DNA of 64,000 bases from Escherichia phage vB_Eco_F26, in the sequence record OP870145.1; one strand, written 5' to 3'. The position numbers and the translations under genes are program-made. Below are positions 1 to 16,923 of this stretch, one piece after another. A model generated the notes under the pieces. That model had not been told where the DNA came from. It saw only the letters and a program-made list of their open reading frames with translations, and did not search any database. Numbering within the stretch: the stretch's first letter is position 1; the number at the start of each line of letters is the position of its first letter.

Positions 1-2178
1 TTAGGCCGCAAGGGCCTTCATAGTTTTAGCGATTTGGGAAACTTCATCATCGCTCAAAGAGTTGCGATAACCGATGAAGTCGGAAACAATACGGAATTTC
101 TTGGTAAACTCAGCAACCATTTTATCACTATTTTTTGAAGCATTACGTGATAATTCATCAAAAAGATTAGTTACCGTCCAGATGTCATGACCGATGGTAT
201 CTTTTCCACCATTAAAATATACACCCTGTAATGAACTAACCATATTAGCGAGTCGTGTATATTCTTCAGAAACTTCATCTACACTGAAGTACTTCATCAT
301 AAAATCTAGTTCAGGATACTTAATAATTTTATCAATATATCGTTTAGCTGAACTTGAATAACCTACATACTTATCATAATCTACATCATCAAAAGCATCT
401 ACATATAAATCACGCAAAGCTTCAAAAATACATTGGCACTGACCGAGTTCTTTTACCTTTTTCTGTAAAAGCGGACGAATAACATAAAATTCATTAATGC
501 CAATAAGATTAGCCATACGAATCAAAATATTCATAGATGGATGACAAAGCGATGTAGTACCATCCATAGAGAAAATATCAGAACGATGCATGTATGCTAC
601 ATAACCAGTAATTTCATCTGCTTCTGATGTGAGCGTAAACAATTCCTCTTTTTCCCAGCGCCCGTCTTTAATTTCAAACTTAAATGCAGTAGCAGTTTTA
701 GGACGAGGAGCTGTACTTTTTACTGCCTTTGGAATATAACTTTTAACTAAAGCTTCAATTTCTGACAGATAATGAATGTTAACTTCATCACTTTCAAACA
801 TTGCGATAATATCAGGAAGCAAATCAATCTGCGATTCTACTTCCGGATTAATAAACAGAAGACGCTCATTGTGATGAATATTCAAAGTGTTATTAAATTC
901 ACTATCATCTAACGCGCGTGCTAATCCACGGACAATATTAACACGATTTTTAGTATTATCAATAACAATATTAATTTTTGTCGTATTAATACCAAACAGA
1001 CGATAGCTTGACGCAACGGCTGAAGTTTCATGGCTTTGCTTAATGCGTTTCAGTCGAGGGTCAAGATTTACTTCATACACAACCCCTGCATTGCATAACT
1101 TACTGTCAGGTTCAAACATGCTCTGCATCTTCTTATATGACAGATTTTTAGTCGTAAATTTGACTGAATTACTAATCATATAATCCCGAGCAGAATATCC
1201 CATCTTCATCAATTCACGGTATGTATGACGAGGAGATGTAGATTCTTTAAATCGTTTTACATCTTCATTGAATGCCTTCTCACTAAGCTCTTTAACACGC
1301 TCAATAATATTTTTACGAGTACGATCGTCCAGTGAAAGAGCCTCACGTGATGGAGCAATATCAAGTGAACCCATTGGAAACTTAATGTAATTCACTTCAT
1401 TGCGGATGCTTAACCAGTTACGGTCTCTAATAACACCATCAATAGGATAAACAATACCACCATAGATAGCATACAATCCGCCACGATCTGGCCAGTATCT
1501 TTCTGGATTTACACCGTAATAGTCATCAAAATCCGGAAAATAATCAATTTCGCGGTCAAGACCATTAATGATAGCCAAATCTTTGAATGGTCGCATGATA
1601 TAAGAAACTTCATAAGCAAAGTTTCTAAAGTCTTTTTCTTCAACCGGAACTACGATTTCAATACCAGTTTTATCGTCTGGACCCATTTCTTTTACGAATG
1701 TAGGTTTAATCTGCGGACCGTCACCATCCATGTAAGCTACATAACCACGAATTTCGCCTTTATGATATGAAGTAATACTAAATGTATCAGTATAACTAAA
1801 CGGAGATTTAGAACCTAAACCAAATCCACCAATGAAATCGTTAGATTCAGCCTTAGATGAACTGAAGTATGAATTATACAACCCAGGAGAATTATCATCA
1901 CCCTGAATATCAAAATCGCTCATACCCGGACCAAAATCTCGACAAACAAATCGCGAATCTAATCGTCCTGGAACTTGTATGATAAATTTTTCAGGATTTC
2001 CATTGAGAGCATGTGCATCAATCATGTTGGTAATCAATTCACGGACTACTGCGCGAATCTTGTTTGTGTACAAATCAGATGATAGAATTTTAAATACTTT
2101 AGGAGATGCTGTGATGCTAAATGCTTTTGATTTAGAACCATTACCAAGAATTGTTTCTTTTTCAGTGGTGATAATCAT
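1..2178 (-). CDS. rIIA: rIIA protein (725 aa), GHKL-type ATPase fold, membrane-associated; stop codon is at window start
   Basis: Full-length 725-aa ORF; N-terminal ExxxNxxDA motif ([11 protein letters not shown]) typical of GHKL ATPases; length and position match T4 rIIA. Confidence 0.85.
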
Positions 2179-2188
2179 AATTTCCTCA

Positions 2189-2392
2189 TTAATTCATATT
2201 GCGTTTAATAACTTCAGCAACTTCTAGTAGTTCATCTTTAGTTGCGGTGTCGGATTGAATTTTATCTCTAATATCCTTAAAGCGGTTTTTAAACTCTTCA
2301 GCTTCTCCCATATCGAAAAAGCGTTGAATGATTCTATATTCTCGATGAACTGCTTTATCAAAAAGTTCTAAATTTACTTTATATGATTTCAT
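2189..2392 (-). CDS. small hypothetical protein (67 aa), rIIA.1-like
   Basis: ORF immediately upstream of rIIA, same strand, tight spacing. Confidence 0.5.
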
Positions 2393-2417
2393 TCCAATAT
2401 CCTCATTTGCCCAATTA

Positions 2418-2447
2418 ATTATACCACATCCTTGTGGTAAAGTAAAC
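2418..2447 (-). promoter_or_regulatory. T4-type early promoter (GTTTAC -35, 18-bp spacer, TATAAT -10)
   Basis: Minus-strand reading GTTTAC-N18-TATAAT; overlaps 3' end of gene 60; same 32-bp sequence repeated at 51435-51466. Confidence 0.55.
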
Positions 2448-2979
2448 TACTGGCTCATCCATTCTTTACGAAGGTCAGCATTATCTCCCATGAGCATTTC
2501 AAAAAGCTCTTTCCAATTCTCAGGAAGTTTAACAACATCATATACTGGATTTTGAATCATCTCACGATATTCAGATTTTTCCAAAGAGCCAAGTCCTTTA
2601 ATATAACGGATGCTATGTTTAGGTAGAGCATCTTTGGCACTCTCATATTCAGCGACTGTATAAAACCATTCTTGTTTTTTACCGACCTGGGCGATGATTA
2701 CAGGAGTTTTGACAAAGCGAATACGTCCTTGCTCAAACAATTCTGGCCAATTACTAAAAAATCCTAGCAGAGAAGGATAAATAGAACCTAATCCAATAAT
2801 CTCTTAATTATGAGGTATTTCTATGGATAGCCCGAAGGCTATCCATCGTGATCTGCGTCTGTCATAATAGCGACATTCGCATAGTTCATTGAAGAGGATT
2901 TAATAGAACGACGAACATTGTTCTGCAATTTATATTTTTTCATATCAACGCTAGAAGAATCAATTTTTACAAATTTCAT
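2447..2979 (-). CDS. 60: DNA topoisomerase II large subunit C-terminal fragment gp60 (160 aa), translated in two segments (2979..2842 and 2791..2447) across a 50-nt untranslated gap
   Basis: Segment 1 encodes MKFVKIDSSSVDMKKYKLQNNVRRSIKSSSMNYANVAIMTDADHDG (46 aa) ending GGA-TAG; segment 2 resumes LGSIYPSLLGFFSNWPELFEQGRIRF...; 46+114=160 aa, matching recalled T4 gp60. Confidence 0.9.
2792..2841 (-). other. 50-nt translational bypass (coding gap) element with take-off hairpin
   Basis: mRNA reads GAU GGA UAG CCUUCGGGCUAUCC...UUGGA UUA; take-off GGA (2842-2844) followed by UAG stop inside an 8-bp stem with UUCG loop (2826-2845); landing GGA at 2792-2794; reading frame restored at UUA 2789-2791. 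Confidence 0.85.
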
Positions 2980-3778
2980 TATACACCTCATAGAACTTTT
3001 CATCAGGAATCCAACCGCGTTTAAATTCATTAAATGCTCGGCCGAATAATTTTGAATTCACAGTTATATTATTAACTGATTTCCATTTAGCAACTCCTGT
3101 TCGTTTATAATGATCGGGGTCATATTTCGTGACGTACCATTCATATAAATTTGGTATTAATTTTACAGCCTCTGGATTTGTCGCTGATTTATTATACCAT
3201 GGTTTCGCTTTTTCAAGTTCAGCTGCTTTTGCAGTAGCAGCAACAGTATTTCCAATACCAACTAATTTTTCAGCTTTAATGCGTGGATCATTAACATGAA
3301 GACGAAAAACTTCGCCCTTTTCATTTTTAAAGCATGTCATGCCTTTAATTCCAGGAAGCTTAACACCTTTATTAACACCGCACCATTCCTTTGGGTTAAA
3401 TGATCCTTTAATTAATAAGGCGCATTTACCCGATTTAATACTTCTCATTAAAACTTTATCTTTCATAAAGTTTTTTGACCATTCAGATACTGCTCTTTGA
3501 TGGTAAATTCTAGCAATTTCATATAATTTACTAGAACGTAAATATTTTTCAGTGTTTAACATTCTATTCATCGCATATGCCATTTCACGATTACGATGAA
3601 TTTTATATAGTAGAAAATGTGCTAAAAAGTGTTCACGAAAAGTCAGTTTCACCAAATTTTCTTTATCATCAGAACCTCCCATTGATCTTGGAAGGATATG
3701 ATGAATTTCACCCTTAAATTTAGAAACGCGGGTTTTACCCCGCACTATTAAGTCATTATAGATTTTTTCGTAATTCAC
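2960..3778 (-). mobile_element. mobA: HNH homing endonuclease gene (272 aa), mobA-like, inserted between gene 39 and gene 60
   Basis: HNH motif EIHHILPRSMGGSDDKENLVKLTFREHFLAHF; overlaps start of gene 60 and end of gene 39. Confidence 0.75.
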
Positions 3779-5306
3779 CTACTGTTATCCATTTACCATT
3801 AATCTGTACTTCATCATTTTCATTTACGATAATTGTATCGCCATTTAGTTCGAAAGTAAACCACTCGCCATCTTCTTTTTCTTCAAATGCCTTTTCACCG
3901 AGAACTAATCCAGTGATTGCGCAAATATCAAACAGTTCTTTGTTTTTAAGCATATCAGCATATGACATACCCCAGCTATTAAGAACTTTACCGCGCAATG
4001 GATAACCACCATGAAATTCTTTATCACGAACATCAATAAGATATCCGATAGCGGAATCACCCTCAGTCAAGAAAAGAGTAGTGTCAGCATCTTTACCACA
4101 AAGATTCGCTTTAATATGTTTATGAACCTTAGCTTTAGAAGCCTTTTTAGCTGCTTTAGTTTCTGCTGCTTTTTCTGCCGCCAATTTACGAGCCAAGGCA
4201 GCTTCAATGATTGGCATTAAAATTGCTTCATTATTCAAAATAGCACGTGAAATCTTTTTAGCATCAAGCTGAATATGACTACGGATTTCACCAAATGGAG
4301 AAGTCAAACGCTCTTTAGTTTGAGAATCAAATCGCATGTTTTTCATATCACGAACAAACATAACGATAGTCAAACATTCTTTAACACGTGCTTTAGTTAC
4401 ATCAATTTTGAATTTACGTTTGATTTGTGGAATAAGGTCTTCACAAATATCATCCATAACGCAGTCAATGTGATGGCCACCATTCTTAGTATGAATGTTA
4501 TTGACGTATGTTAATTGACGAAAACCATCAGGTGAACGACCAACCGCAATAGAACAGTTTTCTTGTTCTTGAACGATAGCATGTTCATCATATTGGCGTG
4601 CATATTTCTTGAAATTACCCTGAACCTTTTTACCATTAAAGGTAAATTGAATATCAGGATAAACTACTGCAAGTGTCTGGAGACGATCTAATGTAATGTC
4701 AAGATAAACTTGGGACAGCTCATTAGTTTCAAATGACATAAAATCAGGAATGAAAGTAACACGAGTTCCTTTCCATTTTCCTGGAATAGTTTCCCATGAT
4801 TTATTTTCCATGCCGTTTGAACAACGAACTACAATATTATTTTGACCATCGCCAGTTTCACCGACAAACATCACAGAAAAAATGTTTGTCAAACTAGAAC
4901 CAACACCATTCATACCGCCAGTGACGCGTTCTTTATCATCACCGAAGTTACCACCTGCTTTTGGAATAGTCCATGCAGCAACAGGACCAGGAATTTCTTC
5001 ACCGGTAGGTGTTTTAACCATCGCCTGTGGAATACCGCGACCGTTATCTTCAACTGTTACTTGATTGTTTTTAATAGTAACATTAATTTTATTTGCGAAT
5101 TTAAACTTAGTACGAATACCTTCATCTACTGAGTTATCGATAATTTCATCAATAAGCTTAACAAGACCAGGTACATACTGAACACTTTCCCATTTACCAA
5201 ACAGAAAGCGCTCATGCATTTCATTAGCAGAAGAGCCAATGTACATGCCGCTACGCTTTTTGATATGTTCAATATCGCTCAGAATTTTAATTTCATTCTT
5301 AATCAT
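3756..5306 (-). CDS. 39: DNA topoisomerase II large subunit, ATPase + Toprim part (gp39, about 516 aa from ATG at 5306)
   Basis: GyrB-like GHKL N-box (DEIIDNSVDEGI) and Toprim EGDSA motif (FLTEGDSA); ORF track starts at GTG 5309, ATG at 5306. Confidence 0.9.
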   Translation of the reverse strand: MIKNEIKILSDIEHIKKRSGMYIGSSANEMHERFLFGKWESVQYVPGLVKLIDEIIDNSVDEGIRTKFKFANKINVTIKNNQVTVEDNGRGIPQAMVKTPTGEEIPGPVAAWTIPKAGGNFGDDKERVTGGMNGVGSSLTNIFSVMFVGETGDGQNNIVVRCSNGMENKSWETIPGKWKGTRVTFIPDFMSFETNELSQVYLDITLDRLQTLAVVYPDIQFTFNGKKVQGNFKKYARQYDEHAIVQEQENCSIAVGRSPDGFRQLTYVNNIHTKNGGHHIDCVMDDICEDLIPQIKRKFKIDVTKARVKECLTIVMFVRDMKNMRFDSQTKERLTSPFGEIRSHIQLDAKKISRAILNNEAILMPIIEAALARKLAAEKAAETKAAKKASKAKVHKHIKANLCGKDADTTLFLTEGDSAIGYLIDVRDKEFHGGYPLRGKVLNSWGMSYADMLKNKELFDICAITGLVLGEKAFEEKEDGEWFTFELNGDTIIVNENDEVQINGKWITVGELRKNL

Positions 5307-5330
5307 CACTTATCCTCGTTTGGTTTCGGG

Positions 5331-5360
5331 AATATTATACTCCGGTAATCATAAAGCTAA
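5331..5360 (-). promoter_or_regulatory. possible middle promoter (MotA-box-like AGCTTTA, 13-nt spacer, TATAAT) upstream of gene 39
   Basis: Minus-strand TTAGCTTTA ... TATAAT immediately downstream of a hairpin; box has one mismatch to TGCTTTA. Confidence 0.4.
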
Positions 5361-5377
5361 AGGCCCGAAGGCCTTTT
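5359..5377 (-). terminator. GC-rich hairpin with tetraloop (AAGGCC-UUCG-GGCCUU) at 3' end of lipoprotein gene
   Basis: Inverted repeat aggcc/ggcct around cgaa; followed on the mRNA by U-rich run. Confidence 0.45.
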
Positions 5378-5636
5378 ATTTAAAACGAATAGTTGAATCC
5401 TTAAAGAACAGCCCAGAACATACTGTTCCTTCTACTTTCTGCCCAGTAGGTCCAATAGCACGAAATCCAGTATGCTGGAAATCATTTTCAGAGCAACCGA
5501 ACCAGTTATATCCGGTGATTTCAATATTAGTAAAACCACTTGAAGACAAAACTTTGGTTGCATTATCAGCATCAGTACATCCTATTAAAGACACTGCTAA
5601 TACTAATGCTGCAATAGAACGATTAATATATTTCAT
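5376..5636 (-). CDS. small predicted lipoprotein (86 aa)
   Basis: N-terminal signal peptide with lipobox LIGC (MKYINRSIAALVLAVSLIGCTD). Confidence 0.5.
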   Translation of the reverse strand: MKYINRSIAALVLAVSLIGCTDADNATKVLSSSGFTNIEITGYNWFGCSENDFQHTGFRAIGPTGQKVEGTVCSGLFFKDSTIRFK

Positions 5637-5638
5637 AA

Positions 5639-5815
5639 TTACCCTTTAAGCAAGTCGTAAAATCCACCATTCACATGCTTAGGAGCGGAAACTAACCGAA
5701 TAGCAATCCGATGACAATCAGGACATACATCAGTATCCCTTTCAGAAATTTTCTTGATTTTTTCGTATTCTTTTGCACAGTCTTTTGATTGACATTTATA
5801 ATCATAAAGCGGCAT
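5639..5815 (-). CDS. FmdB-family-like zinc-ribbon protein (58 aa), not in supplied ORF track
   Basis: Hand translation MPLYDYKCQSKDCAKEYEKIKKISERDTDVCPDCHRIAIRLVSAPKHVNGGFYDLLKG; two Cys pairs (C-x4-C ... CPDC) and RLVSAP motif. Confidence 0.5.
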   Translation of the reverse strand: MPLYDYKCQSKDCAKEYEKIKKISERDTDVCPDCHRIAIRLVSAPKHVNGGFYDLLKG

Positions 5816-5817
5816 AA

Positions 5818-6237
5818 TTATTCCTTAAAGTAAGCTTTCAACATCTGATATAAAGACCACGCCTGATCATTATTTTCAATAGTAATTTTCATGACTGGGA
5901 ATTCTGTGAAATCTTCTATTTGTTCTTGCTCTTCCTGCTCTTGTTCTTCAGCTGCCTGGTATGGATTTTCAACTTCATTAAAGAACCCAGCTTCGTTAGT
6001 AGAAAGCCAGATAAAGTTTTCGCCAAGGATATCACCATATGTTGAATATCCAACTGTGCCAGTAGATGTCACAATTTTAGTAGGACGCCCGTAATAGTCA
6101 ACATCTAAAATTTTAAAAGGTTCCATACCTAAACGGCGCGCATAGATTCCATTATAAGTATGGTCTTTAATAAAAGCTTCTTGAGCTTGTTTATTTTTAA
6201 ATTGATACCATTTATTAACCTCAAATTTAATAGCCAT
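5818..6237 (-). CDS. hypothetical protein (139 aa) with acidic EQEQEEQEQ tract; possibly goF-like
   Basis: ORF in position of T4 goF; name not verifiable from sequence. Confidence 0.4.
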
Positions 6238-6455
6238 TAATAAATTTCCTTCCAGTAAGTTGTGCCATCTTCAGTAATTTCACGAAATACACCGTAAATT
6301 GGTTGTTTATCACTGACTTTCTCATACACATAAACCGAAGTCAAGTGAGTAAACTTGCTAGTATGTTCCTTTTGAACTACTACCAAATCTGGATCGAATA
6401 ATACATCTTCAAATTCATCATTAGTGCAATTCTGAACAATTTTACGTTTCATCAT
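6237..6455 (-). CDS. small hypothetical protein (72 aa), cef-like position
   Basis: ORF with overlapping start/stop to neighbour. Confidence 0.4.
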
Positions 6456-6624
6456 AATTTCCTCATTAATTGAACATTGGAGAGATGCGTTTCAGAAGAG
6501 TATCAGCACCTTTGGCGAATTATCCATTTTATTCTTCAAGTTGTTTTCTGTATCAGTAGTTGATATTGATATAGTACCATAATCAACTACTGATGTATAT
6601 AGTTTTATGAAAAAATTTTAAACT

Positions 6625-7116
6625 TTATGCATAGCGAGCTTTGCTGTAGTGTTTAATCCAACTTTCAGGAATGACTTTGTATGTTCCTAAAAATACCACA
6701 TTGTACAGCTTAACACCATCTTCTACCCATTGATCAGTAATGTATGCACACATAGCGCGAGTACGCTGAGGAAGTGGTTGTCCACCTTCGGTAAATTCAA
6801 ACTCATAAGGAGCAATGAACTTGATAGCTTGACCAAGTTTCCACTTAAAGTCTACACCTACATGTGAAGTATCAATCGTTTCAATTCCTTTAGCAGGAAC
6901 AGCTTTCAAAAACGCAGATTCAAGAAATTTCGCGCGAACATAACCAAACTGAGGTTTAGACTTTCCATCTTTAGGAATGATACGCACTTTTACTTCAGAA
7001 TCTTCATCTTTAACGCCATGTTTAAGCTGAATGCTTACAATTTCGACCAATTTTCCTGCTGCTTTAGAACGGGATTTATCAGATACACGAGCAATTTCAC
7101 CAATATTAATAATCAT
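6625..7116 (-). CDS. hypothetical protein (163 aa), motB-like; paralog of 7193-7735
   Basis: C-terminal motif ITDQWVEDGVKLYNVVF shared with next ORF (VTDQWIEDGVELLNVVH). Confidence 0.45.
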   Translation of the reverse strand: MIINIGEIARVSDKSRSKAAGKLVEIVSIQLKHGVKDEDSEVKVRIIPKDGKSKPQFGYVRAKFLESAFLKAVPAKGIETIDTSHVGVDFKWKLGQAIKFIAPYEFEFTEGGQPLPQRTRAMCAYITDQWVEDGVKLYNVVFLGTYKVIPESWIKHYSKARYA

Positions 7117-7192
7117 AGTTATCTCTCACTTGTTAAAAAGATTTTATACTCCACAGGACCATTATACTCTGGTCCCAAGAGTTTGTAAACTA

Positions 7193-7735
7193 TTAATTCA
7201 AAATAGCTACCACTGCACTACGAGGTACTACGCTAAAATCACCTGCATGAACAACGTTCAGAAGTTCAACACCATCTTCAATCCATTGGTCTGTTACCCA
7301 ACCACAGACCGAAATAAATGGAGTCTTGATAGCTACCGCATGAGTTAGAAGGTCGGTAGGGTCTTGTTCTTCAACTTCTTGGAACAGGATGAACTCATCT
7401 TCATAAACCAGGTTTTTCTTTATTTTGTTATTATCTAACCGGCGACCGTGGATGACGTAAGATTTGTCAAACCACTCACTTTTGGCAAATTCTTCAACAA
7501 TAAATTCGCCTTCGCCAAAAACATCAGTCAGAGTTTTATGACCGGAAATCAAGGCATTAGTTTTAATTTTAGGTTCAACCAGTTTGTAGGTTTTGCCGAT
7601 TTCAATAGCGGTAGTCATAGTAGGTTCCTTAATTTCCAGCGGTTTAACAGGGCATACATAAGTGCTTACAACATCAAAATCAATCAGTTTAGCTACCGGA
7701 TTTGGTATGTATTCAGGATTATAATTAAATTTCAT
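7193..7735 (-). CDS. hypothetical protein (180 aa), paralog of 6625-7116
   Basis: Shared C-terminal TDQW(I/V)EDGV motif block. Confidence 0.45.
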   Translation of the reverse strand: MKFNYNPEYIPNPVAKLIDFDVVSTYVCPVKPLEIKEPTMTTAIEIGKTYKLVEPKIKTNALISGHKTLTDVFGEGEFIVEEFAKSEWFDKSYVIHGRRLDNNKIKKNLVYEDEFILFQEVEEQDPTDLLTHAVAIKTPFISVCGWVTDQWIEDGVELLNVVHAGDFSVVPRSAVVAILN

Positions 7736-7737
7736 AA

Positions 7738-8238
7738 TTATCTCATTTCAATAAAATCTACGAGTTCAGCATGCGATTTGCGGAACATTACTTGGTGCCC
7801 GCCAATGATAACTTGGTCATCTGGCACTTCGTATACAGCAAGATAAAATCCTTTAGAAGATAATTCTTCCCGCTCTTCTCGTGTGAACCATCTCATCATA
7901 TCATACTCACTAGCGAAAGCAAAATGATAAAGAGCTATAAACCATCCTGGAATATGATATTCTACTCCAACATAATCTTTCTTGAACTTAGTATTAATTA
8001 CTATATTAGCGTTTTTAACTAATAGTTTATCTTCGTGTGGTAAAGGAATTCTTTTATTATTATCGCTATGATGCATAAAATTAGGTCTGCCATAACCTAC
8101 GTGTAATAGCCACTCTTCGCTCCATGAATCTATTATACTCCTGTACGGCGTTATTTGAACACAAAGATTTCGACGTATTGTTATAGCATCTTCATTATTA
8201 AGAATACTAAACGATGATTCAACACGATAAATTTTCAT
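7738..8238 (-). CDS. hypothetical protein (about 166 aa from MKIYRV)
   Basis: ORF track begins at 8277, but early promoter at 8264-8295 and GAGGA SD favour ATG at 8238. Confidence 0.45.
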   Translation of the reverse strand: MKIYRVESSFSILNNEDAITIRRNLCVQITPYRSIIDSWSEEWLLHVGYGRPNFMHHSDNNKRIPLPHEDKLLVKNANIVINTKFKKDYVGVEYHIPGWFIALYHFAFASEYDMMRWFTREEREELSSKGFYLAVYEVPDDQVIIGGHQVMFRKSHAELVDFIEMR

Positions 8239-8263
8239 TTTATTATCCTCAGTAGCTATGGTG

Positions 8264-8295
8264 TTATAATACCACAACTAACCGAGGAAGTAAAC
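8264..8295 (-). promoter_or_regulatory. T4-type early promoter (GTTTAC-N18-TATTAT)
   Basis: Minus-strand GTTTAC at 8290-8295, -10 at 8266-8271. Confidence 0.5.
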
Positions 8296-8301
8296 AACTT
8301 T

Positions 8302-8985
8302 TTATCGTTTTGTTGGAAGAGACAGAGGATCGCAATCTTCCTCTGACGGAGCATCTTCAAGACCCATAGCGTATCGCAAAGCATACTTCATCATCAGGAT
8401 GTCTTTCGCACAGTCATGAATAGAATCATGCGCAACGAATCCATCTAAAGTTCCTTTTGGAAGAGGACACGTGGTCATATCACGAACAAGCAGAAGTGCT
8501 TCAATTCTGGTACGAATATCACGCTGATTCCAAAATTTACAAGGTTCTAACTTAAATGTATCAAGCTCATTCTCGGAAACGCCGTTAAGACGTTGAATAT
8601 CGCGAATGAGATCGACTAAAATTGGAAAATCAAACGACATTCCACGGCACCAGCCTTGAGATTTCCAAGGATCGATATTATGCGCATTGATGTAATCATT
8701 AAATTTTGCAATACCATCGATAGTGCTTACATCTTCATCTGATGGCGCAATATTTTTTCGAGCTTCAGGAGATTGATTCTTCCACCATTCGATAGTGCTT
8801 TTAGTAAAAAGACGATGTCCTTTTTGGCTTTTTAAATCAAATTTGATTTTAATGCCACGTGAAACTAATTCATCAAATGTTTCAACGACTTCTGGATTAG
8901 GGTCAAAAGCAATTACAGCCAAATCAATAACAGCTGCTTTTTCACCGCTTCCCATTGTTTCAAAATCTATAATAAAATCAAACAT
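8302..8985 (-). CDS. dexA: exonuclease A (227 aa), DEDD-type 3'-5' exonuclease
   Basis: N-terminal FDFETMG acidic motif; 227 aa as in T4 DexA. Confidence 0.8.
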   Translation of the reverse strand: MFDFIIDFETMGSGEKAAVIDLAVIAFDPNPEVVETFDELVSRGIKIKFDLKSQKGHRLFTKSTIEWWKNQSPEARKNIAPSDEDVSTIDGIAKFNDYINAHNIDPWKSQGWCRGMSFDFPILVDLIRDIQRLNGVSENELDTFKLEPCKFWNQRDIRTRIEALLLVRDMTTCPLPKGTLDGFVAHDSIHDCAKDILMMKYALRYAMGLEDAPSEEDCDPLSLPTKR

Positions 8986-9260
8986 TAAATTTTCCTCGCT
9001 AAATCGCGAATTTGACCTACAGTATAATCTTGGATATAAACTTTATTAATGGGCTCATCAATAAATTTTGCCATAGATTCAATATCTTTTTGTATCTCTT
9101 CAAGACTGTATACTATCTTTGAAGCTTTTTCGCAAATAGTAACATTATCAGGTCCTGGATTTTCCTCAATGACAGCTTTAACATTTGTCATAAGAGATTT
9201 AAACTGATGCAAACTTAATTCAATCATTAATAACCGCCTTATAAAGATGGCTAATTTCAC
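8985..9260 (-). CDS. hypothetical protein (91 aa), dexA.1-like
   Basis: ORF with ATGA start/stop overlap with dexA. Confidence 0.45.
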   Translation of the reverse strand: MKLAIFIRRLLMIELSLHQFKSLMTNVKAVIEENPGPDNVTICEKASKIVYSLEEIQKDIESMAKFIDEPINKVYIQDYTVGQIRDLARKI

Positions 9261-9480
9261 CTAAAACGTAATCACTGATTGTAACAGTTTTCACTTCACC
9301 ACAAAAGAATTCTAACGCAATCAAATCTCGTTCAATTTCTTCCAATTGAAGCATTAACTTGCCTGATTCAATTTTCACGTTTTTGCGATTTTTACTATAA
9401 GCTATTTCATATATTTCGCTCACTTTATCTTGAAGTAGATAAAACTGGTCTTTAGTTATTTCCACGAATAGCTTCCTCAA
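9220..9480 (-). CDS. hypothetical protein (86 aa), dexA.2-like
   Basis: ORF. Confidence 0.45.
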   Translation of the reverse strand: MRKLFVEITKDQFYLLQDKVSEIYEIAYSKNRKNVKIESGKLMLQLEEIERDLIALEFFCGEVKTVTISDYVLGEISHLYKAVIND

Positions 9481-9486
9481 ATTTAA

Positions 9487-10806
9487 TCATACATAAAACA
9501 CATCATAACGACCACGTGTTACACCAACATAAAGAAGCTGCTGAGCTAGTTCAGCATCTGCATAATGAATGCAAGGTGTATAAATGAAAGCACGATCTAC
9601 AGACATGCCCTGAGCTTTATGGAATGTTGATGCAGGAAGTGCTTTCACTTTACTAAACTGTGATTTAGCATCCCAAAAATCACTCCACGGAGCTTTTCCA
9701 CCTTTATTCCAATTTTTATAAGTTTCTGCCGTTTTACCTAAAAATAAGTTAAACTTATACAGCTCTTCATCAGATGAAATTATTTTAATCTTTTCACGAT
9801 AATATTCATCATCGCCGTAAGTTTCTACTGTTAAATCCCAATGACGAATTAGATATTCTCCGGGAACACCACGAGCTTTAACAAATGTTGATGTATACTC
9901 TGCTTCTATAATACGAACTAATTGTCCATTATTAAAAATAATTTCTGACACAGGCTTTCCATCAATTTTATATGTTTTAATTAATGGTTCCTGCATTACA
10001 ATAATTTCACCAACGATAAAATCTTTATCAGTTTCAAAAATCTTTTTGCGAATAATGCTATTTAACTTATCAACAGATTTATTCGTAAATGCCATTACGC
10101 GATTTTCAAACAAATCATCTAGCGATTTGACGATTGAAAAATAATTTACCATAAAATCGCGTAAAGCGGTATCACCAGTAAATCCACGTACTCCATGCCC
10201 GTCAACAATTTTATCATAAATCCACTTACCGTTGCGAACATCAGTAGCTACATCAATAATAGGAGCATTACTGCGTTTAACTTCAGTGAGTTCACATTGA
10301 TAAAAATCTTTGTGCGTAAAGAATGGACTGATATAAGCAGTGTTTTCTCCTGGGTCAACAGGTCTAATTTGCTTATTATCGCCTATTCCAATTATAGTAC
10401 ACCAAGGTGGAATAGTTGAAAGCAGAATTTTAAATAGCTTTCTATCATACATTGATACTTCGTCGCAGATTAATACTCTGCATTTAGCTAAATCCGGTAC
10501 TTCTTTTTGTTCAAAAAGAACGTTTTCTTCGTATGTTACTGGGTTAATTTTAAGAATACTGTGAATAGTACTCGCTTCTTTCCCTGATAGTTTTGAAAGA
10601 ATCTTTTTAGCTGCATGTGTAGGAGCTGCTAAAATAATTCCAGTTTCGCCCGTAGATATTAAAGCTTCAATGATGAACTTAGTAAGAGTAGTCTTACCAG
10701 TACCAGCAGGTCCATTAATAGTTACATGATGTTTCTTTTCTTTGATAGCCCTCATAACGATGTTAAAGGCATTTTTCTGGCCTTCGGTCAAATCATCAAA
10801 TGTCAT
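9487..10806 (-). CDS. dda: Dda SF1B DNA helicase (439 aa)
   Basis: Walker A GPAGTGKTT, Walker B LICDEVSM; length 439 aa as T4 Dda. Confidence 0.9.
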   Translation of the reverse strand: MTFDDLTEGQKNAFNIVMRAIKEKKHHVTINGPAGTGKTTLTKFIIEALISTGETGIILAAPTHAAKKILSKLSGKEASTIHSILKINPVTYEENVLFEQKEVPDLAKCRVLICDEVSMYDRKLFKILLSTIPPWCTIIGIGDNKQIRPVDPGENTAYISPFFTHKDFYQCELTEVKRSNAPIIDVATDVRNGKWIYDKIVDGHGVRGFTGDTALRDFMVNYFSIVKSLDDLFENRVMAFTNKSVDKLNSIIRKKIFETDKDFIVGEIIVMQEPLIKTYKIDGKPVSEIIFNNGQLVRIIEAEYTSTFVKARGVPGEYLIRHWDLTVETYGDDEYYREKIKIISSDEELYKFNLFLGKTAETYKNWNKGGKAPWSDFWDAKSQFSKVKALPASTFHKAQGMSVDRAFIYTPCIHYADAELAQQLLYVGVTRGRYDVFYV

Positions 10807-11114
10807 CGTAAATTCCCTGCAATTGGTATACTAACAATACGCCCAGTATCTAAAATTCGCCGATATAATCTTTGTGTGTCTACATCAGGCTTAACGTGTT
10901 TAACTTCTATTTTATTAAACCAAAACTTGCGTGGAGTCTCAACTAATCTCGGAATTCCCATACCTAAAGCTAGTTGATACTGCTCTTTAAGAGTAGTAAA
11001 TACTTTATCAGCAATCTCCCTTTCAAAAAATACAGCAGGACGATGTTCATCAAGAGGAACAGGCACCGCAAATCCATCTTTATCTCTATACACTATCGCA
11101 TATACATAAAACAT
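10803..11114 (-). CDS. hypothetical protein (103 aa), dda.1-like
   Basis: ORF overlapping dda start. Confidence 0.45.
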   Translation of the reverse strand: MFYVYAIVYRDKDGFAVPVPLDEHRPAVFFEREIADKVFTTLKEQYQLALGMGIPRLVETPRKFWFNKIEVKHVKPDVDTQRLYRRILDTGRIVSIPIAGNLR

Positions 11115-11115
11115 A

Positions 11116-11862
11116 TTATCCTCGGATAAGTTTAAAAATTGAACAATTTAGCGGGTATCCTCTTTTCAGTTTAAGTTTATCAATAAAAGACAAATTTTGA
11201 TACCGCTCTACACCTTGAATAATTTTATCACACATATCATATTGCATTTCTGCTTCTGACAACTTTTTCACAATTTTCCAATCCGAGCCTTTAAGAAGAA
11301 CGTTCAGTTTAACAACTTCAGCGCCTTCTGCTATACGAGAACCATCAATACGAGCTTTAAGTGCTATAATTCTTAGCTTAATGTCAGAGGTCTGTTTTGA
11401 TTTAGAAAGCTGAGAAATGTGTTCAATTCGGTTTTCACGTTTTTTCTGTATAGCTTTAATTTGATTATAAGTCTTTTTGATTTTAGCCCATTTCTTTTCA
11501 TCTAAATTTAGTTTATGAACTTTTTTCGCAGATGAACGACCAATTCGCAAAGCAAATAAATCACGCTTTTCAATTAACTCTTCTAAAGTATAATCAGAAC
11601 GAAATGTATTATACTTTTTCTTTACTGCAATAACATTCCCTTTAATGTATCCAACGTTATTATCAAAACGTTCTAACGATAATTTCTCTCCTTCAATACG
11701 ATTATCAAAAGGTTCTCCTGAGTAAGCGCAAACTTTCTGATCTAAAATGTTCTTAATGTAATTGAAGTCTAAGTTAAAATCTTTAGAACGTCTTTTTGCA
11801 GATGCCTGAGTATGCTCTAAACGACGTTTAATTTTACGAATTTGATTATTAGACAGCTTCAT
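11116..11862 (-). CDS. srd: Srd-like protein (248 aa), basic, putative sigma-factor-related regulator
   Basis: Position after dda and before modA; basic N-terminus; name from synteny. Confidence 0.5.
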   Translation of the reverse strand: MKLSNNQIRKIKRRLEHTQASAKRRSKDFNLDFNYIKNILDQKVCAYSGEPFDNRIEGEKLSLERFDNNVGYIKGNVIAVKKKYNTFRSDYTLEELIEKRDLFALRIGRSSAKKVHKLNLDEKKWAKIKKTYNQIKAIQKKRENRIEHISQLSKSKQTSDIKLRIIALKARIDGSRIAEGAEVVKLNVLLKGSDWKIVKKLSEAEMQYDMCDKIIQGVERYQNLSFIDKLKLKRGYPLNCSIFKLIRG

Positions 11863-11891
11863 ATTTTTCTCACGGACGGTTAACTACTTAT

Positions 11892-11921
11892 ACTATATCA
11901 TTTTTACTTCAGCTTGTAAAC
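11892..11921 (-). promoter_or_regulatory. T4-type early promoter (GTTTAC-N18-TATAGT)
   Basis: Minus-strand GTTTAC 11916-11921, -10 11892-11897. Confidence 0.5.
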
Positions 11922-11977
11922 AACTTTATGAAAAATGCTTTAAAACTTTCATGGTATAATGAATCTAAGTCCTTCCA

Positions 11978-12580
11978 TTATAGATTAAATCCTTCAAAAT
12001 CAAGAGTATAGATAGTGTATGTTGAATACTTTTTATACTCATATCTATCCGCAATTCTAAATACACTTCCAGCTGGTATCATTACTTCTTGTTCATCTGA
12101 AACTAATTCCATATTACGATAGCGATGGCTATCCGGAAACTTAAAACTTGGACTGTATTCTTTACAACGTAGAGCTTTTATAGCATACTCCTGAAAATTA
12201 AATACCATAGGAGCTTTGAATTCAAAAATAACTTGCGTGTTGTATTCTAATCCAGAAGCAAAATGCAGAGCTATATTTTTATCATATGAAGCTGATACTA
12301 CTTTATCAAATGTAATAATATCAATTCCTTGATTTAACACCTGCTTAGTCTCAACTGGAACACCTCTCCAAAGAGGTTTATCGTTTGGAACCAAACGAGA
12401 TTTGATTATTTCATTTAACCAAGAATGATCGTCTGGCTTATTAGTAATACAATGAATTAAAAGTTCAATTTCAGATAAATTAAACCCTTCAGAAAGTAAT
12501 TCTTCACGAATAGAAGCACGCACAGATGCATCCATTGATTTTATTTTAAAATCTTTTAGTTGCATTACTGAGTATTTCAT
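11978..12580 (-). CDS. modA: ADP-ribosyltransferase ModA-like (200 aa)
   Basis: 200 aa, tandem with 207-aa paralog; matches T4 ModA/ModB lengths and locus. Confidence 0.65.
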   Translation of the reverse strand: MKYSVMQLKDFKIKSMDASVRASIREELLSEGFNLSEIELLIHCITNKPDDHSWLNEIIKSRLVPNDKPLWRGVPVETKQVLNQGIDIITFDKVVSASYDKNIALHFASGLEYNTQVIFEFKAPMVFNFQEYAIKALRCKEYSPSFKFPDSHRYRNMELVSDEQEVMIPAGSVFRIADRYEYKKYSTYTIYTLDFEGFNL

Positions 12581-13200
12581 TCAACTACCTCAATATCATA
12601 AACTTTAAATGTTCCAAATGAATCGTGTAATTTTTCTTTTGAAATAGAAGTTATTTTATACTTTCCAATTGGAATCATCCATTCTTGTTCACGCACAATC
12701 ATCATTAAGTTATCAGTACGCTCTGAATCTAGCCCATCAGTATCTTCATACGTGTACTTGAACTCAGTATTAGGAGAAGAAAGTATAATATCGCTGATAT
12801 GGTCAGAATAATTAAAAGCTTTATCAGTTTTTAAGCGAAATATTATTTCAGTGAAATACTCAACATAAGAAAAACCACATGCTGTGTGCAAACTAGTAGT
12901 AAATGAATCTACCCTGTTCGTTGAAAACACCTCTCCAACTTGTAAATCTTTAATGAGTTCTTTTGTCGATTTTGATATACCACGATATAGCTGATAAGGT
13001 GATTTAGTTAAATGCTTTTTAACGATTTTATTCAACTGCTGATGAAGAGCTTCATTCTTTTTGGCTTCCATACATTGCCAAAGAATTGACTGTTCAAAGT
13101 CAGTAAATTTTTCACAGACCTTTTTATACATATCATATTGAAAATCAACACTTTCAGCTTTTATAGATAACTGTTCAACATCTGCAAGATTAATAATCAT
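12577..13200 (-). CDS. modB: ADP-ribosyltransferase ModB-like (207 aa)
   Basis: Paralog of preceding ORF; 4-nt overlap. Confidence 0.65.
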   Translation of the reverse strand: MIINLADVEQLSIKAESVDFQYDMYKKVCEKFTDFEQSILWQCMEAKKNEALHQQLNKIVKKHLTKSPYQLYRGISKSTKELIKDLQVGEVFSTNRVDSFTTSLHTACGFSYVEYFTEIIFRLKTDKAFNYSDHISDIILSSPNTEFKYTYEDTDGLDSERTDNLMMIVREQEWMIPIGKYKITSISKEKLHDSFGTFKVYDIEVVE

Positions 13201-13226
13201 GATAGCCTCCGTATACTTCAGAAGCT

Positions 13227-13256
13227 ATCATATCATCGTTAGAAAGGAAAGTAAAC
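13227..13256 (-). promoter_or_regulatory. T4-type early promoter (GTTTAC-N18-TATGAT)
   Basis: Minus-strand GTTTAC 13251-13256, -10 13227-13232. Confidence 0.5.
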
Positions 13257-13267
13257 AACTTTTTGAA

Positions 13268-13450
13268 TTATTTTGCCCAGGGAGCCCAGGGCGGAGGGTC
13301 AAGATGGTATGAAGCTAGTTCTTCTAGAAGAGCATCTGGGGCTTCAATTCCATAATTCTGTAATACTATACGGTACTCTTTCTTATAATCACTAGAATCA
13401 TTCTGGATATTCGTAGAATGATTATCTTCTAACATCTCAAATAAATCCAT
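13268..13450 (-). CDS. hypothetical protein (60 aa)
   Basis: ORF. Confidence 0.4.
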   Translation of the reverse strand: MDLFEMLEDNHSTNIQNDSSDYKKEYRIVLQNYGIEAPDALLEELASYHLDPPPWAPWAK

Positions 13451-13458
13451 ATTAATTC

Positions 13459-13929
13459 CTAGCGATAAAAACCAAAATGACGATTAGCTTCAGCAATCTT
13501 TCTTTCTTCTTCGGACATTCTCCAGCGTAGTCCAACATCAAAATGAGCCCAGACCATTTTAACAAATGCGTGTATGTCTTTAATATCCTCAATAATGAAT
13601 GTTTTACTTTTCGAAGGTTGACTCGCTAATTTAACCTTATCATCTTCAAACAGGTCAAAAAGACCATATTCATGAGCTCTTTTATAGCCTTTAATAGTTA
13701 AAGCTTCGGAAGAAGAAAACGGTGAATCAATATTTTGCAAAATATCTTCAGTATGCTTTATAATTAGAATAATATTTTCTGGATATTTTCTTTCTTTTAT
13801 ATCTTTAATTAAAAAATCCGGATTTTCTGCTAAAGGAATAATTAATGAGCATTTTTTATCAAGTGTATTTACTGATTTACCTTCTTTAGACATAAATTCT
13901 ATTGAATAATGTTTTGCTACTTCAATCAT
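13459..13929 (-). CDS. hypothetical protein (156 aa)
   Basis: ORF. Confidence 0.45.
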
Positions 13930-14082
13930 GGGATTTCCTTTTGCCTACTAATGGACCATCGGGAATTTTGTTTTCCTGGATATATTTCTCATTTTCTTCC
14001 ATCATTTTACTACCTATTTTAAGAAGCAAATCCATTGCTTCATTTGCTTTAGCTTTAGCCTCTTCTAACGTCATATCTTTGT

Positions 14083-14286
14083 TCATGATTTATCACCATA
14101 GATGTCTCTCATCAATTTAAGCGCTGAGCGTTCTAATTTCTTTTCTTTCTCAGCACTAATCATTGATTTCATCCATTCTTCCGATTCGTTCTGCATTTCT
14201 TTATTTGCTTGTTCAACCCAACCATCATCAATATACATTGAGTTTGGTCTATTGAACCATTCAAGCATTTTCTTCAGAGCTTTCAT
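14083..14286 (-). CDS. hypothetical protein (67 aa)
   Basis: ORF. Confidence 0.4.
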
Positions 14287-14758
14287 TTGTTTTACCTAAA
14301 ACAATAGTAGGAGCATCGTCAAATTCATGAATTTTTAGCAAATTTGGATTTAAATTATTCCATAAAGATGTAATAAAATATGATAAAGCATCTTCGTCCA
14401 CAATTATAAACTTATTTCCTTTATCTATTTCCCAACTATATGCTGAATCATATGAATAAAAAGATAAAGGTTTATCATTATATTTTTCTGTGTTAACATT
14501 AATGTATTCTGATTTAGTAAATGCTTCAATTGCTCTAAATGGAATATTTTGTACAGTTTCAATAATACCAATCTTTTTAAGTTTTATTTCAGCATCTTCT
14601 GGAACTGGCATTGAAACGAAATTTTTTACGAGATACATTGGGTCACAATAACCCTTATCAATCATTACAGCTACAGTAATTGGAACATCTTTAGCAAACG
14701 ACATGCTATTACTGCTAATATACATTTCAAACAAAATCGCTTCCATAATTTTCCTCAA
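14261..14758 (-). CDS. hypothetical protein (165 aa), mrh-like position
   Basis: ORF. Confidence 0.4.
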
Positions 14759-15087
14759 TCACAGGATGTGGATGAACAACTAGAATCACAAGAACTTCCA
14801 CATGAATCGCCCGTCCATACATGAACAGGAACATTAGTATCATATGAATCAGAACTAGACTGTGTATTAGATGATGTAGTAGGTACTGACCAGCGCCAAG
14901 GATTTTTATAATATTCTTGGGCTTCTTCATAAGTCATAGTGACTGCTTCTACTGTTCCATCTCCCATATAAACATACTCAACTACAGTTAAAGGAAGGTC
15001 GTCATTTGAAATAGGAACTACACCTTCCCCAGGAACTGTAGAGAAAAAATCCGTAAAGAAATTTTTAAACCAATTAAAGATAAACAT
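14755..15087 (-). CDS. hypothetical protein (110 aa) with Ser/Cys-rich C-terminus
   Basis: ORF; C-terminal [15 protein letters not shown] tract. Confidence 0.4.
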
Positions 15088-15293
15088 TACAAAAAGCCTC
15101 TTTTGAATTCAACTTGCTTCTCGCCATAATCGTATCGAATCTCTGCATTAAATTCAACAGAACCATCTGCGTACATCATAAATGAATGCACAACAACTTC
15201 TGTAGACCATGGTTGCAATTCATATTTCTTCATTACGTGTCGTGAAATGATAATATCTAAATCTTCATTCGGTTTAATCCAACGATTTAACAT
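15087..15293 (-). CDS. hypothetical protein (68 aa)
   Basis: ORF. Confidence 0.4.
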   Translation of the reverse strand: MLNRWIKPNEDLDIIISRHVMKKYELQPWSTEVVVHSFMMYADGSVEFNAEIRYDYGEKQVEFKRGFL

Positions 15294-15364
15294 AGCGCTC
15301 TCCTCTATAAGATAATTCTATTATACCATACTCATTTTGATATGTAAACCATTTAAATGAAAAA

Positions 15365-15384
15365 AGGACTCCCGAAGGAGTCCT
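15365..15384 (-). terminator. intrinsic terminator-like hairpin after soc (GGACUCC-UUCG-GGAGUCC + U-run)
   Basis: 8-bp stem with tetraloop followed by UUUUU on mRNA. Confidence 0.6.
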
Positions 15385-15391
15385 TGAATTA

Positions 15392-15637: not shown

Positions 15638-15667
15638 GTAATTCTCCTTTTATTTAAATTACATGAT

Positions 15668-15675
15668 TATTTATA
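15668..15675 (-). promoter_or_regulatory. late promoter TATAAATA upstream of soc
   Basis: Exact TATAAATA on minus strand about 30 nt upstream of soc ATG. Confidence 0.6.
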
Positions 15676-16850: not shown

Positions 16851-16923
16851 GTTATTTTTCCTTTCAATTCATGGGTTAGTAGATTAATTATACAATAAAT
16901 ATATAAAGCAATAAGGAGGACAT

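Follow-up and report, generated by a model that had tools for sequence, protein, structure and literature searches.

The large subunit of topoisomerase II of Escherichia phage vB_Eco_F26 (sequence record OP870145.1) is encoded by a pair of genes (39 and 60) that have the gene of an HNH endonuclease between them, and the question arises of how a subunit of this enzyme came to be divided in this way. Programmed translational bypassing has its textbook case in the "hop" of gene 60, and Huang et al. are said to have described the gene 39/mobA/gene 60 system of T4 with its 50-nt bypass in 1988. The locus was analysed within a stretch of 64,000 nt of the phage DNA (the window). On the minus strand the genes follow one another in the order gene 39, mobA, gene 60. 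This order, with an HNH ORF at 2960-3778 that overlaps both neighbours, had been put forward in the original prediction and is present at essentially these positions. The features of the locus are the following:

3888..2783, minus strand: whole MobA mobile element, 1106 nt (alignment with seven cassette-free and seven cassette-bearing relatives)
5306..3756, minus strand: gene 39, topoisomerase II large subunit, N-terminal polypeptide, 516 aa (ORF and T4T annotation)
3778..2960, minus strand: mobA, GTG start, 272 aa, free-standing HNH homing (nicking) endonuclease (ORF and PHROG 655)
MobA residues 26-54: HNH motif HHILPRSMGGSDDKENLVKLTFREHFLAH (motif alignment to solved HNH domains)
2979..2842 joined to 2791..2447, minus strand: whole gene 60, 160 aa, two ORF parts and not one
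2979..2842, minus strand: gene 60 codons 1-46, wholly element-encoded (sequence, T4T annotation, PHROG 19082 and PHROG 7229)
2846..2823, minus strand: take-off stem-loop AUGGAUAGCC-UUCG-GGCUAUCCAU, 10-bp stem with UUCG loop
2844..2842, minus strand: take-off GGA (sequence)
2841..2839, minus strand: UAG stop after the take-off codon (sequence)
2841..2792, minus strand: coding gap, untranslated, 50 nt (sequence; coincides with a T4T misc_feature)
2803..2801, minus strand: GAG mini-SD, 6 nt ahead of the landing GGA
2794..2792, minus strand: landing GGA at the 3' end of the gap, the two GGA codons being 50 nt apart
2791..2447, minus strand: gene 60 codons 47-160 and stop, rest of the Toprim and C-terminal domain (Pfam TOPRIM_C, translation)

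Gene 39 starts with a GTG at 5309 according to the ORF lister and with the adjoining ATG at 5306 according to the T4T annotation. mobA shares 23 nt with gene 39 (3778..3756, stop codon included; 20 nt if it is left out) and 20 nt with gene 60 (2979..2960), in different frames in both cases. By alignment, the first 9 nt of the second part of gene 60 (2791..2783) are of the element type and the remainder is host-derived. Gene 60 and the "translational bypass region" agree base for base with the T4T annotation, as does the gene order, and since T4 and other Tequatrovirus records with these annotations share 97-98% identity with the region, the gene assignments are far beyond chance. The backbone is that of a Tequatrovirus different from T4, ~95-97% identical to the nearest records. 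In the records of the carrier phages ELT1, LH2, G50 and pSe_SNUABM_01, gene 60 is annotated as separate fragments or as "frameshift". A scan of 2150..5700 for promoters and terminators gave fewer promoter-like sites than shuffled sequences, and none bearing on the expression of mobA or gene 60.

The two polypeptides together have the domain order of a type IIA topoisomerase ATPase subunit (GHKL ATPase, transducer, Toprim with E...DxDxD, C-terminal domain), which runs collinearly over gp39 and gp60. gp39 comprises the GHKL ATPase and the transducer and, of the Toprim domain, the first half with the EGDSA motif (residues 415-419); its residues 1-473 are host-derived and residues 474-516 are a C-terminal extension (CTE) of 43 aa encoded by the element. 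It matched HATPase_c and DNA_gyraseB of Pfam, gyrB and parE of NCBIfam and, over residues 1-475, PHROG 543. On this last profile, which describes the intact family, gp39 aligned to positions 23-504 and gp60 to positions 502-638, i.e. consecutively; on the gyrB and parE profiles, too, the two proteins cover successive parts. gp60 begins with a unique N-terminal extension (residues 1-30), in which the bypass signal of the nascent peptide resides, followed by the HomR segment (residues 31-46) including the Toprim motif DADHD (residues 41-45), and matched TOPRIM_C of Pfam. The two Toprim motifs are therefore located in separate polypeptides, and the Pfam match to Toprim, residues 410-492 of the intact protein of RB51, spans the insertion point at residue 473. 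The original prediction had assigned ATPase and Toprim to gene 39 and the C-terminal piece to gene 60; the ATPase is indeed found in gp39, but the label is imprecise with respect to the Toprim, because the split falls inside this domain. A cryo-EM study of the T4 enzyme found the Toprim likewise split between gp39 and gp60 and described a ~70-aa Toprim insertion as an external "pendant" that leaves the activity unaffected; solved structures exist for the topoisomerases of T4 and T6. gp39 carries F at position 431, adjoining the PLRGK motif, where all compared phages have L.

The junctions of the insertion were mapped, as the original prediction had proposed, against relatives with an uninterrupted gene 39 of 605 aa (RB51, OES_C-2, NBG2, Sf21, Killian, SP21535 and FL34). 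In 7/7 the junctions were identical: identity ends after ...LVLGEKA473 (window position 3889), a single block of 1106 nt takes the place of 64 nt of parental gene 39, and the rest of the 605-codon gene is collinear. Nothing in this alignment contradicted the prediction; the 5' boundary is ambiguous by ~3 nt. The block contains, in this order, a 43-codon tail of gene 39, mobA, the gene 60 start with its SD and a 30-codon leader, HomR, the 50-nt gap and 9 further nt. HomR is a recoded copy of 16 deleted codons. It comprises 46 nt between the 1-kb insert and the gap plus the 9 nt past the gap, and these 55 nt are identical to the parental DNA at 38 positions (69%) for six relatives and at 41 (75%) for SP21535, compared with ~97% in the flanks. 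The encoded peptide, NYANVAIMTDADHDGLGS, is nearly unchanged from the parental NY(R/H)NIAIMTDADHDGLGS. The assignment of HomR to the element was based on an identity of no more than 69% with the parental DNA, combined with an almost unchanged peptide.

The dimensions and parts of this block are those of a known mobile element. According to Manning & Atkins 2022, MobA elements are 1097-1106 nt long, replace 55-75 nt of the parent and carry a HomR that is 67-81% identical to it; the element of vB_Eco_F26 has 1106 nt, 64 nt are deleted and HomR is 69-75% identical. These elements are inserted in the Toprim-coding part; counted on the intact protein, the site lies at residues 466-473, and in vB_Eco_F26 after residue 473. 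The HNH ORF of 269-279 aa overlaps out of frame with a CTE of ~44 aa of ORF1 and with an NTE (extension at the N terminus) of 44-46 aa of ORF2, and the corresponding values are 272, 43 and 46 aa. The bypass cassettes combine matched codons with a stop or hungry codon; the stem-loop is capped by a stable tetraloop, a mini-SD precedes the landing codon by 5-7 nt, and the 3' part is rich in A and U. Here, GGA/GGA, UAG, a UUCG hairpin and GAG 6 nt ahead were found. Compared with the T4 element itself, the site after ...GEKA473, the length, the deletion, the CTE and the NTE with HomR are the same, as are the size of the HNH ORF and its out-of-frame overlap with both neighbours, the 9 element nucleotides past the gap, the matched GGA codons, the UAG, the CC-UUCG-GG tip of the hairpin and the position of the GAG. 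The differences are trivial: a C at 2825, F431 in gp39 and the different Tequatrovirus backbone. The cassette is the already described MobA element, clade 1 of Manning & Atkins 2022, and we put the probability that the region is a copy of this element in the Toprim-coding part of a Tequatrovirus topoisomerase II large-subunit gene at about 95%.

The endonuclease gene has 272 codons and no internal stop. MobA matched PHROG 655, "homing endonuclease", with an E-value of 2.5e-57 and reached 20.1 bits against the Pfam HNH family (PF01844), for which the curated cut-off is 21.4. Its HNH motif agrees position by position with solved HNH domains: in the form EIHHILPrsmGGSDDkeNLVkl..H it aligned with Cas8f-HNH fusions and with the HNH domain found in a group II intron maturase (6me0, E = 0.0095), and the catalytic residues H26-H27, N41 and H50/H54 are kept, in agreement with the His...Asn...His arrangement of HNH (beta-beta-alpha-metal) endonucleases. 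An inactive or degenerate HNH motif, which the original prediction had named as evidence that would speak against it, is not what the alignment revealed: the motif is intact. The AlphaFold model of MobA, computed from an alignment of two sequences from the window proteins, had a mean pLDDT of 45, a pTM of 0.30 and values below 50 in the HNH region, too poor for a fold call. The protein is identical in ELT1, LH2, G50 and SNUABM01 and differs from that of T4T by one change (A169T; 271/272 residues identical).

Among ~500 close records in the phage collection, 41 are carriers. All 41 have the mobA insert and the bypass together and none has either alone, and the ~460 other close records (at least 95% identity) contain only the flanks (two pieces that cover 65% of the query), which is the presence/absence polymorphism among near-identical phages expected of a MobA element. 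Identity among carriers is 99.3% in the element against 96.9% in the gene 39 core; the flanks of carriers are no nearer to each other than to those of non-carriers and flanking polymorphisms are common to both groups. Compared with LH2, the element has 0 mismatches in 1106 nt, and the surroundings have 126 in 2645 nt (4.8%), the first mismatches lying 12 and 13 nt beyond the element boundaries; at this flank divergence the chance of 0/1106 is about 4e-24. These data bear on the view that genes 39 and 60 were separate from the beginning and became fused, with loss of the DNA between them, into the single gene 39 of other T-evens. "Gene-fusion or gene-separation" are named as formal alternatives in the T4 structural paper, and secondary re-fusion in some Aeromonas phages was reported by Manning & Atkins 2022, but an ancestral split should be basal and as diverged as its flanks, and the observed pattern is the opposite: the split state is restricted to 41 of the ~500 close records, the element is 4-5x less diverged than the flanks and identical where these differ by 4.8%, flanking polymorphisms cut across carriers and non-carriers, the cellular homologues GyrB, ParE and Topo II are collinear across the split point, and the 64 nt that the element replaced are present in it as a recoded duplicate, HomR. 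This origin was therefore rejected as extremely improbable. It is also very improbable that the 50-nt gap was inserted independently of the 1-kb mobA insert and that the two merely came to be neighbours. Between them there are indeed 46 coding nt homologous to the parent, and Manning & Atkins 2022 allow a once-independent origin, the gap occurring with other types of endonuclease in metagenomes. However, these 46 nt and the 9 nt past the gap belong to the element haplotype (69% identical to the parental sequence, invariant among carriers), the mismatch-free tract shared with LH2 covers both features, and their linkage is complete; on the grounds of this linkage and of the shared haplotype between the two features, separate insertions were rejected.

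It also had to be considered whether the element is a relic with an inactive enzyme, in which the bypass is retained solely because gp60 depends on it. In the T4 reference record mobA is entered as a pseudogene, defective, together with ORF 60.1, Manning & Atkins 2022 described several lineages in which the endonuclease was progressively lost, and mobA of vB_Eco_F26 has a GTG start and no obvious strong SD. The pseudogene of AF158101/NC_000866, however, depends on 11 extra bases that are missing in T4T, and other T4 records imply the same absence (match span of 3150 nt versus 3161 nt in the reference). With an unbroken ORF, a protein that is the same in four other carriers and one residue away from that of T4T, an intact catalytic motif and a near-identity of the element over diverged backgrounds that argues for recent and hence active spread, we consider a dead element quite unlikely and rejected it. 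The original proposal of a single cassette, endonuclease plus bypass, that invaded an intact gene 39 is supported by the junctions, by HomR, by the 41/41 linkage and by the conservation of the element. The same conclusion has been published by Manning & Atkins 2022 and, as far as that work is seen through later accounts, by Bonocora et al. 2011.

The take-off hairpin of gene 60 has a predicted energy of -17.0 kcal/mol (z = -5.5), and 0/200 shuffled sequences were as stable. The gap differs from that of T4T at one base: position 2825 is C here and U in T4, by which a G-U pair of the stem becomes G-C (-17.0 versus -14.7 kcal/mol). The C is a minority variant; at least five further phages with a known sequence have it, and G50, LH2 and 215Ecol030PP carry the same base. 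The nascent-peptide residues Y16, Q19, V22, R24, Y33, M39, T40 and H44 are the same as in T4T. Hairpins were also predicted for the 5' stem-loop and for the forward-slippage barrier, but with stabilities not exceeding those of dinucleotide-shuffled sequence (z = -1.5 and -0.1, respectively), and because of this the two were not counted as independent evidence. A scan of the whole window against Rfam at gathering thresholds gave zero matches, so no curated Rfam family covers the bypass RNA. An exact-pattern scan of IMG/VR with the full 56-nt take-off-to-landing sequence, two positions being degenerate, gave 0 matches, diverged copies being outside the reach of such a pattern. Judged from these sequence features, ribosomes of vB_Eco_F26-infected cells probably skip the 50 nt and yield a gp60 of 160 aa. 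It is unlikely that the fully Watson-Crick 10-bp take-off stem with C-2825, ~2.3 kcal/mol stabler than that of T4, perhaps together with L431F in gp39, would measurably alter the efficiency of bypassing and hence the stoichiometry of gp60 to gp39 or the element's cost.

Since gp60 is 100% identical to that of T4T, MobA one residue off and the gap one base off, we infer that the mechanism known from T4 also applies in vB_Eco_F26. As Bonocora et al. 2011 are reported in Manning & Atkins 2022 and two reviews, T4 MobA nicks the T2 allele, the bypass sequence protects the carrier and the element homes into T2. Following the published T4 work, MobA of vB_Eco_F26 would nick gene 39 of relatives in which no cassette interrupts it, within the sequence equivalent to HomR, and in a mixed infection the recipient would acquire the element in full by recombinational repair. 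The recognition site would be destroyed by the 50-nt gap, which lies ~20 nt from the nick site, and the carrier would be immune to its own MobA because this site is ruined. Ribosomes translating gene 60 would stall at GGA-UAG, the peptidyl-tRNA(Gly) would un-pair, aided by the nascent peptide and the take-off hairpin, slide over 50 nt and re-pair at the second GGA; from this re-pairing full-length gp60 would result with an efficiency of roughly 50%. gp39 and gp60 would then reassemble via their element-encoded tails and form the active enzyme with gp52.

The MobA element shares parts of this strategy with other mobile sequences. The MobE-type insertion in nrdA of phage Aeh1, compared here by description, is also a free-standing Mob-family HNH endonuclease that splits an essential gene (a ribonucleotide reductase) and adds C- and N-terminal tails, and the halves reassemble (Manning & Atkins 2022), but the target gene is a different one and Aeh1 has no translational bypass. 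Like the homing endonucleases borne by introns or inteins (I-TevI-III, I-HmuI), the MobA element spreads selfishly by cutting or nicking the empty allele, followed by repair copying, and its insertion disrupts the target site and confers self-immunity; unlike in these, gene function is restored by subunit reassembly and bypassing and not by RNA or protein splicing. The "byp" elements in mitochondria of Magnusiomyces capitatus are likewise coding inserts (27-55 nt) that are bypassed between matched codons, but they are unrelated in sequence, occur in many copies and lack an associated endonuclease.

Another intact copy of the MobA element in a T4-like phage is no new biology, and the practical value of the finding lies in annotation: gene 60 has to be annotated as a two-part join over the 50-nt gap. 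If C-2825 did influence bypassing, the phage would offer a natural allele on which the tuning of take-off by hairpin stability could be studied. The sharp boundaries of identity with LH2 are an illustration of recent homing from one diverged backbone to another. The MobA element also serves as a model for the way in which a selfish endonuclease can invade an essential gene without death of the host.

ORFs were listed for the window up to 5.7 kb, all of them on the minus strand, and the annotation of phage T4T was transferred base for base:

2178..1, minus strand: rIIA (ORF listing)
2392..2189, minus strand: rIIA.1, 67 aa (ORF listing)
2740..2447 as listed, minus strand: ORF of the C-terminal part of gene 60 (ORF listing)
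end at 2839, minus strand: 63-aa ORF (ORF listing)
3778..2960, minus strand: 272-aa ORF, mobA (ORF listing and T4T annotation)
5309..3756, minus strand: 517-aa ORF, gene 39 with GTG start (ORF listing)
5306..3756, minus strand: gene 39 (T4T annotation)
join(2979..2842, 2791..2447), minus strand: gene 60 (T4T annotation)
2841..2792, minus strand: "non-coding translational bypass region" (T4T annotation)

The original prediction of a topoisomerase II large subunit gene split by an HNH endonuclease ORF was confirmed, except that its end coordinate for gene 39, 5309, is the GTG taken as start by the ORF lister; the annotated ATG is one codon downstream. In a megablast of the region against 50,697 phage records, T4 and other Tequatrovirus members were 97-98% identical, with ELT1 and HZ_ZJUN4 on top (98.3%) and T4 records at 97.9%. 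Across 25 kb the nearest records reached only about 95-97% identity, which makes this a T4-like phage distinct from T4 itself. An Rfam scan of both strands of the whole 64-kb window (1..64000) returned no family at gathering score. Between gene 39.1 and gene 39, a hairpin (AAAGGCC-UUCG-GGCCUUU, 5359..5377, minus strand) has the same tip, CC-UUCG-GG, as the take-off stem-loop of gene 60; the G50 record carries a terminator annotation there, but the hairpin was not picked up by a simple scan for terminators.

Gene 60 starts with an ATG at 2979 (minus strand), preceded by GAGG, and its first 46 codons (MKFVKIDSSSVDMKKYKLQNNVRRSIKSSSMNYANVAIMTDADHDG) run up to the GGA at 2844..2842, directly followed by UAG. 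The landing GGA (2794..2792) is found 50 nt further on, with GAG 6 nt ahead of it, and the frame then continues as LGSIYPSLLGFF...EWMSQ* (114 codons). The take-off codon is located within a 10-bp hairpin (AUGGAUAGCC-UUCG-GGCUAUCCAU; z = -5.5), and 0/200 shuffled sequences were equally stable. T4 bypassing relies on the nascent peptide, the A-site hairpin, the slow UAG, GAG:anti-SD pairing and matched GGA codons, and is performed by about half of the ribosomes (T4 literature). The 160-aa gp60 product is identical to gp60 of T4T and therefore has every nascent-peptide residue on the list of those that matter for bypassing. The gap differs from that of T4 in one base, C instead of U at 2825, which turns a G-U pair of the stem into G-C (hairpin energy -17.0 kcal/mol, versus -14.7 kcal/mol in T4). 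Over 81 nt surrounding the gap, G50, LH2 and 215Ecol030PP are 100% identical to the window; ELT1 and pSe_SNUABM_01 also have C at 2825, plus a second change. In the public records of ELT1, LH2, G50 and pSe_SNUABM_01, gene 60 is annotated as 2-3 separate small CDSs or as "frameshift" rather than as one joined CDS spanning the 50-nt gap; mobA is annotated shortened in pSe_SNUABM_01.

To map the junctions, seven relatives with an intact, 605-aa gene 39 (RB51, OES_C-2, NBG2, Sf21, Killian, SP21535 and FL34) and seven carriers of mobA and bypass (T4T, the T4 reference, ELT1, LH2, G50, CJY920 and pSe_SNUABM_01) were aligned. Identity to the intact genes stops after GGTGAAAA(A/G)GC, encoding ...LVLGEKA473 (3889), and restarts at ATTTATCC (2782). 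The interval spans 64 nt in the intact genes (TGAAAACTTGAATTATC..GACCATGATGGTCTAGGAAGC) and 1106 nt in the window (3888..2783). The 46 nt ahead of the gap, together with the 9 nt behind it, specify a peptide almost identical to that of the deleted parental segment, but only 38/55 nucleotides are identical (41/55 for SP21535), with flanks at ~97%; this segment, termed "HomR" by Manning & Atkins, therefore belongs to the element, and the 1-kb insert forms one contiguous block with the 50-nt gap. Thus, a single cassette of endonuclease and bypass in an ancestral intact gene 39, as originally proposed, is borne out by the mapped junctions: one 1106-nt block replaces 64 nt. The window matches the published MobA element (clade 1) in its 1106 nt, the 64 nt deleted, the 43-aa C-terminal and 46-aa N-terminal extensions and the HomR identity of ~69%, and shares the clade-1 peculiarity of 9 element nucleotides beyond the gap. 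The cassette-free Shigella phage SP21535 has several third-position states in common with the element HomR (GACGCAGATCACGA), which hints that the clade-1 HomR was copied from this kind of backbone.

The whole query was covered in 41 of about 500 records (at least 95% identity); the others matched with the flanks only (65% coverage, two pieces). The bypass, at an identity of at least 95%, was found in exactly those 41; diverged bypasses occur in 11 further records of Proteus and Salmonella S16-type phages, as published. Among carriers, mean identity is 99.3% for the element versus 96.9% for the gene 39 core, and flank identity is no higher between two carriers than between a carrier and a non-carrier. 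Window and LH2 have 0 mismatches in the 1106 nt but 126 in the surrounding 2645 nt, the nearest at 3900 and 2770, 12 and 13 nt beyond the boundaries; at this flank divergence, a mismatch-free element has a probability of about 4e-24. Flanking polymorphisms, e.g. GGATTA vs GGTCTA at 3909/3908, are independent of the cassette.

The 272-aa mobA ORF is uninterrupted and its product is identical to MobA of ELT1, LH2, G50 and pSe_SNUABM_01; T4T MobA differs only by A169T. The HNH motif HHILPRSMGGSDDKENLVKLTFREHFLAH (residues 26-54) corresponds position by position to those of a group II intron maturase (6me0) and of Cas8f-HNH fusions, and PHROG 655 "homing endonuclease" matches with E = 2.5e-57. The Pfam HNH model scored 20.1 bits, slightly below its 21.4-bit cut-off, and a predicted MobA structure was of too low quality to add evidence. 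A degenerate motif had been named beforehand as refuting the cassette; the motif here is therefore not of that kind. In the T4 reference (NC_000866.4 / AF158101.6), 11 extra bases are scattered in mobA relative to the window and T4T, corresponding to 3439..3646, and yield the annotation "defective mobA" and "ORF 60.1". Since the other T4 records matched share the 3150-nt match span of the window (3161 nt in the reference), mobA seems to be a pseudogene in this single record only, as a peculiarity or by mistake.

Two independent insertions are contradicted because mobA and the 50-nt gap are completely linked and the sequence that separates them is of element type. Likewise, the distribution among records and the divergence pattern contradict an ancestral split that was later fused into a single gene 39, and a dead relic is unlikely given an intact and conserved mobA ORF.

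The assignment of ATPase plus Toprim to gene 39 had to be corrected. Pfam detected HATPase_c and DNA_gyraseB in gp39 and TOPRIM_C in gp60. On PHROG 543, the profile of the intact family, gp39 (residues 1-475) takes up positions 23-504 and gp60 (residues 27-160) positions 502-638, and the gyrB and parE models behave likewise. The Toprim model matches residues 410-492 of intact RB51 gp39 (weakly, E = 0.008), across the insertion point, and EGDSA is found in gp39 (residues 415-419) but DADHD in gp60 (residues 41-45), which places the split within the Toprim metal-binding site. Structures are solved for T6 gp39 and fused T4 gp39-gp60; according to the 2024 cryo-EM work, the ~70 element-encoded residues form a pendant outside Toprim, an assembly bracket with little effect on activity. 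Residue 431 of gp39 (4016), just upstream of the conserved Toprim PLRGK motif, is Phe (DVRDKEFHGGYPLRGK); Leu occupies this position in RB51, in the PDB entry of the T6 protein and in each of the five carriers whose proteins were compared.

A second free-standing HNH ORF (33186..34040, minus strand, 284 aa, HHVLPKS...NLVNL...H) is flanked by a gp46-like gene (31488..33170) and by small ORFs that lie upstream of a gp47-like gene (34484..35503); tblastn aligned it to MobA with 29% identity across 203 aa (E = 5e-8). Only 71/517 matching phage records contain its 1251-nt segment in full, annotated as "homing endonuclease", so that it seems to be a further mobile element with presence/absence polymorphism. 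Compared with the window, CJY920 (PQ349265.1) has ~0.9 kb extra at the gene 60 3' end, with a 270-aa Mob-like HNH ORF (...THHILPKSMGGSNAKSNLVKMTPREHFIAH...; 564..1376 of that record, minus strand) overlapping the gene 60 stop codon (1361..1363), and a diverged homologous version takes the place of the final ~45 gene 60 codons; a second homing endonuclease seems to sit right beside the MobA element, in a record flagged UNVERIFIED.

In sum, apart from the Toprim assignment, alignments, linkage and intact parts confirm the observation and support its interpretation, and every part is already known (Huang 1988; Bonocora 2011; Manning & Atkins 2022; 2024 cryo-EM work). Anatomy, boundaries, linkage and the intactness of all parts are read from the sequence itself. 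According to the T4 literature, MobA nicks the uninterrupted allele inside the HomR-equivalent sequence, the element is then copied in by repair (demonstrated for transfer from T4 to T2), and the carrier is protected by the 50-nt gap, ~20 nt from the nick site, HomR polymorphisms alone being insufficient. Given the near-identity, we consider it about 95% probable that this mechanism also holds here: MobA would nick the cassette-free allele in the HomR-equivalent sequence, repair would insert the element, and the 50-nt gap would shield the carrier allele while ribosomes bypass it in gene 60.
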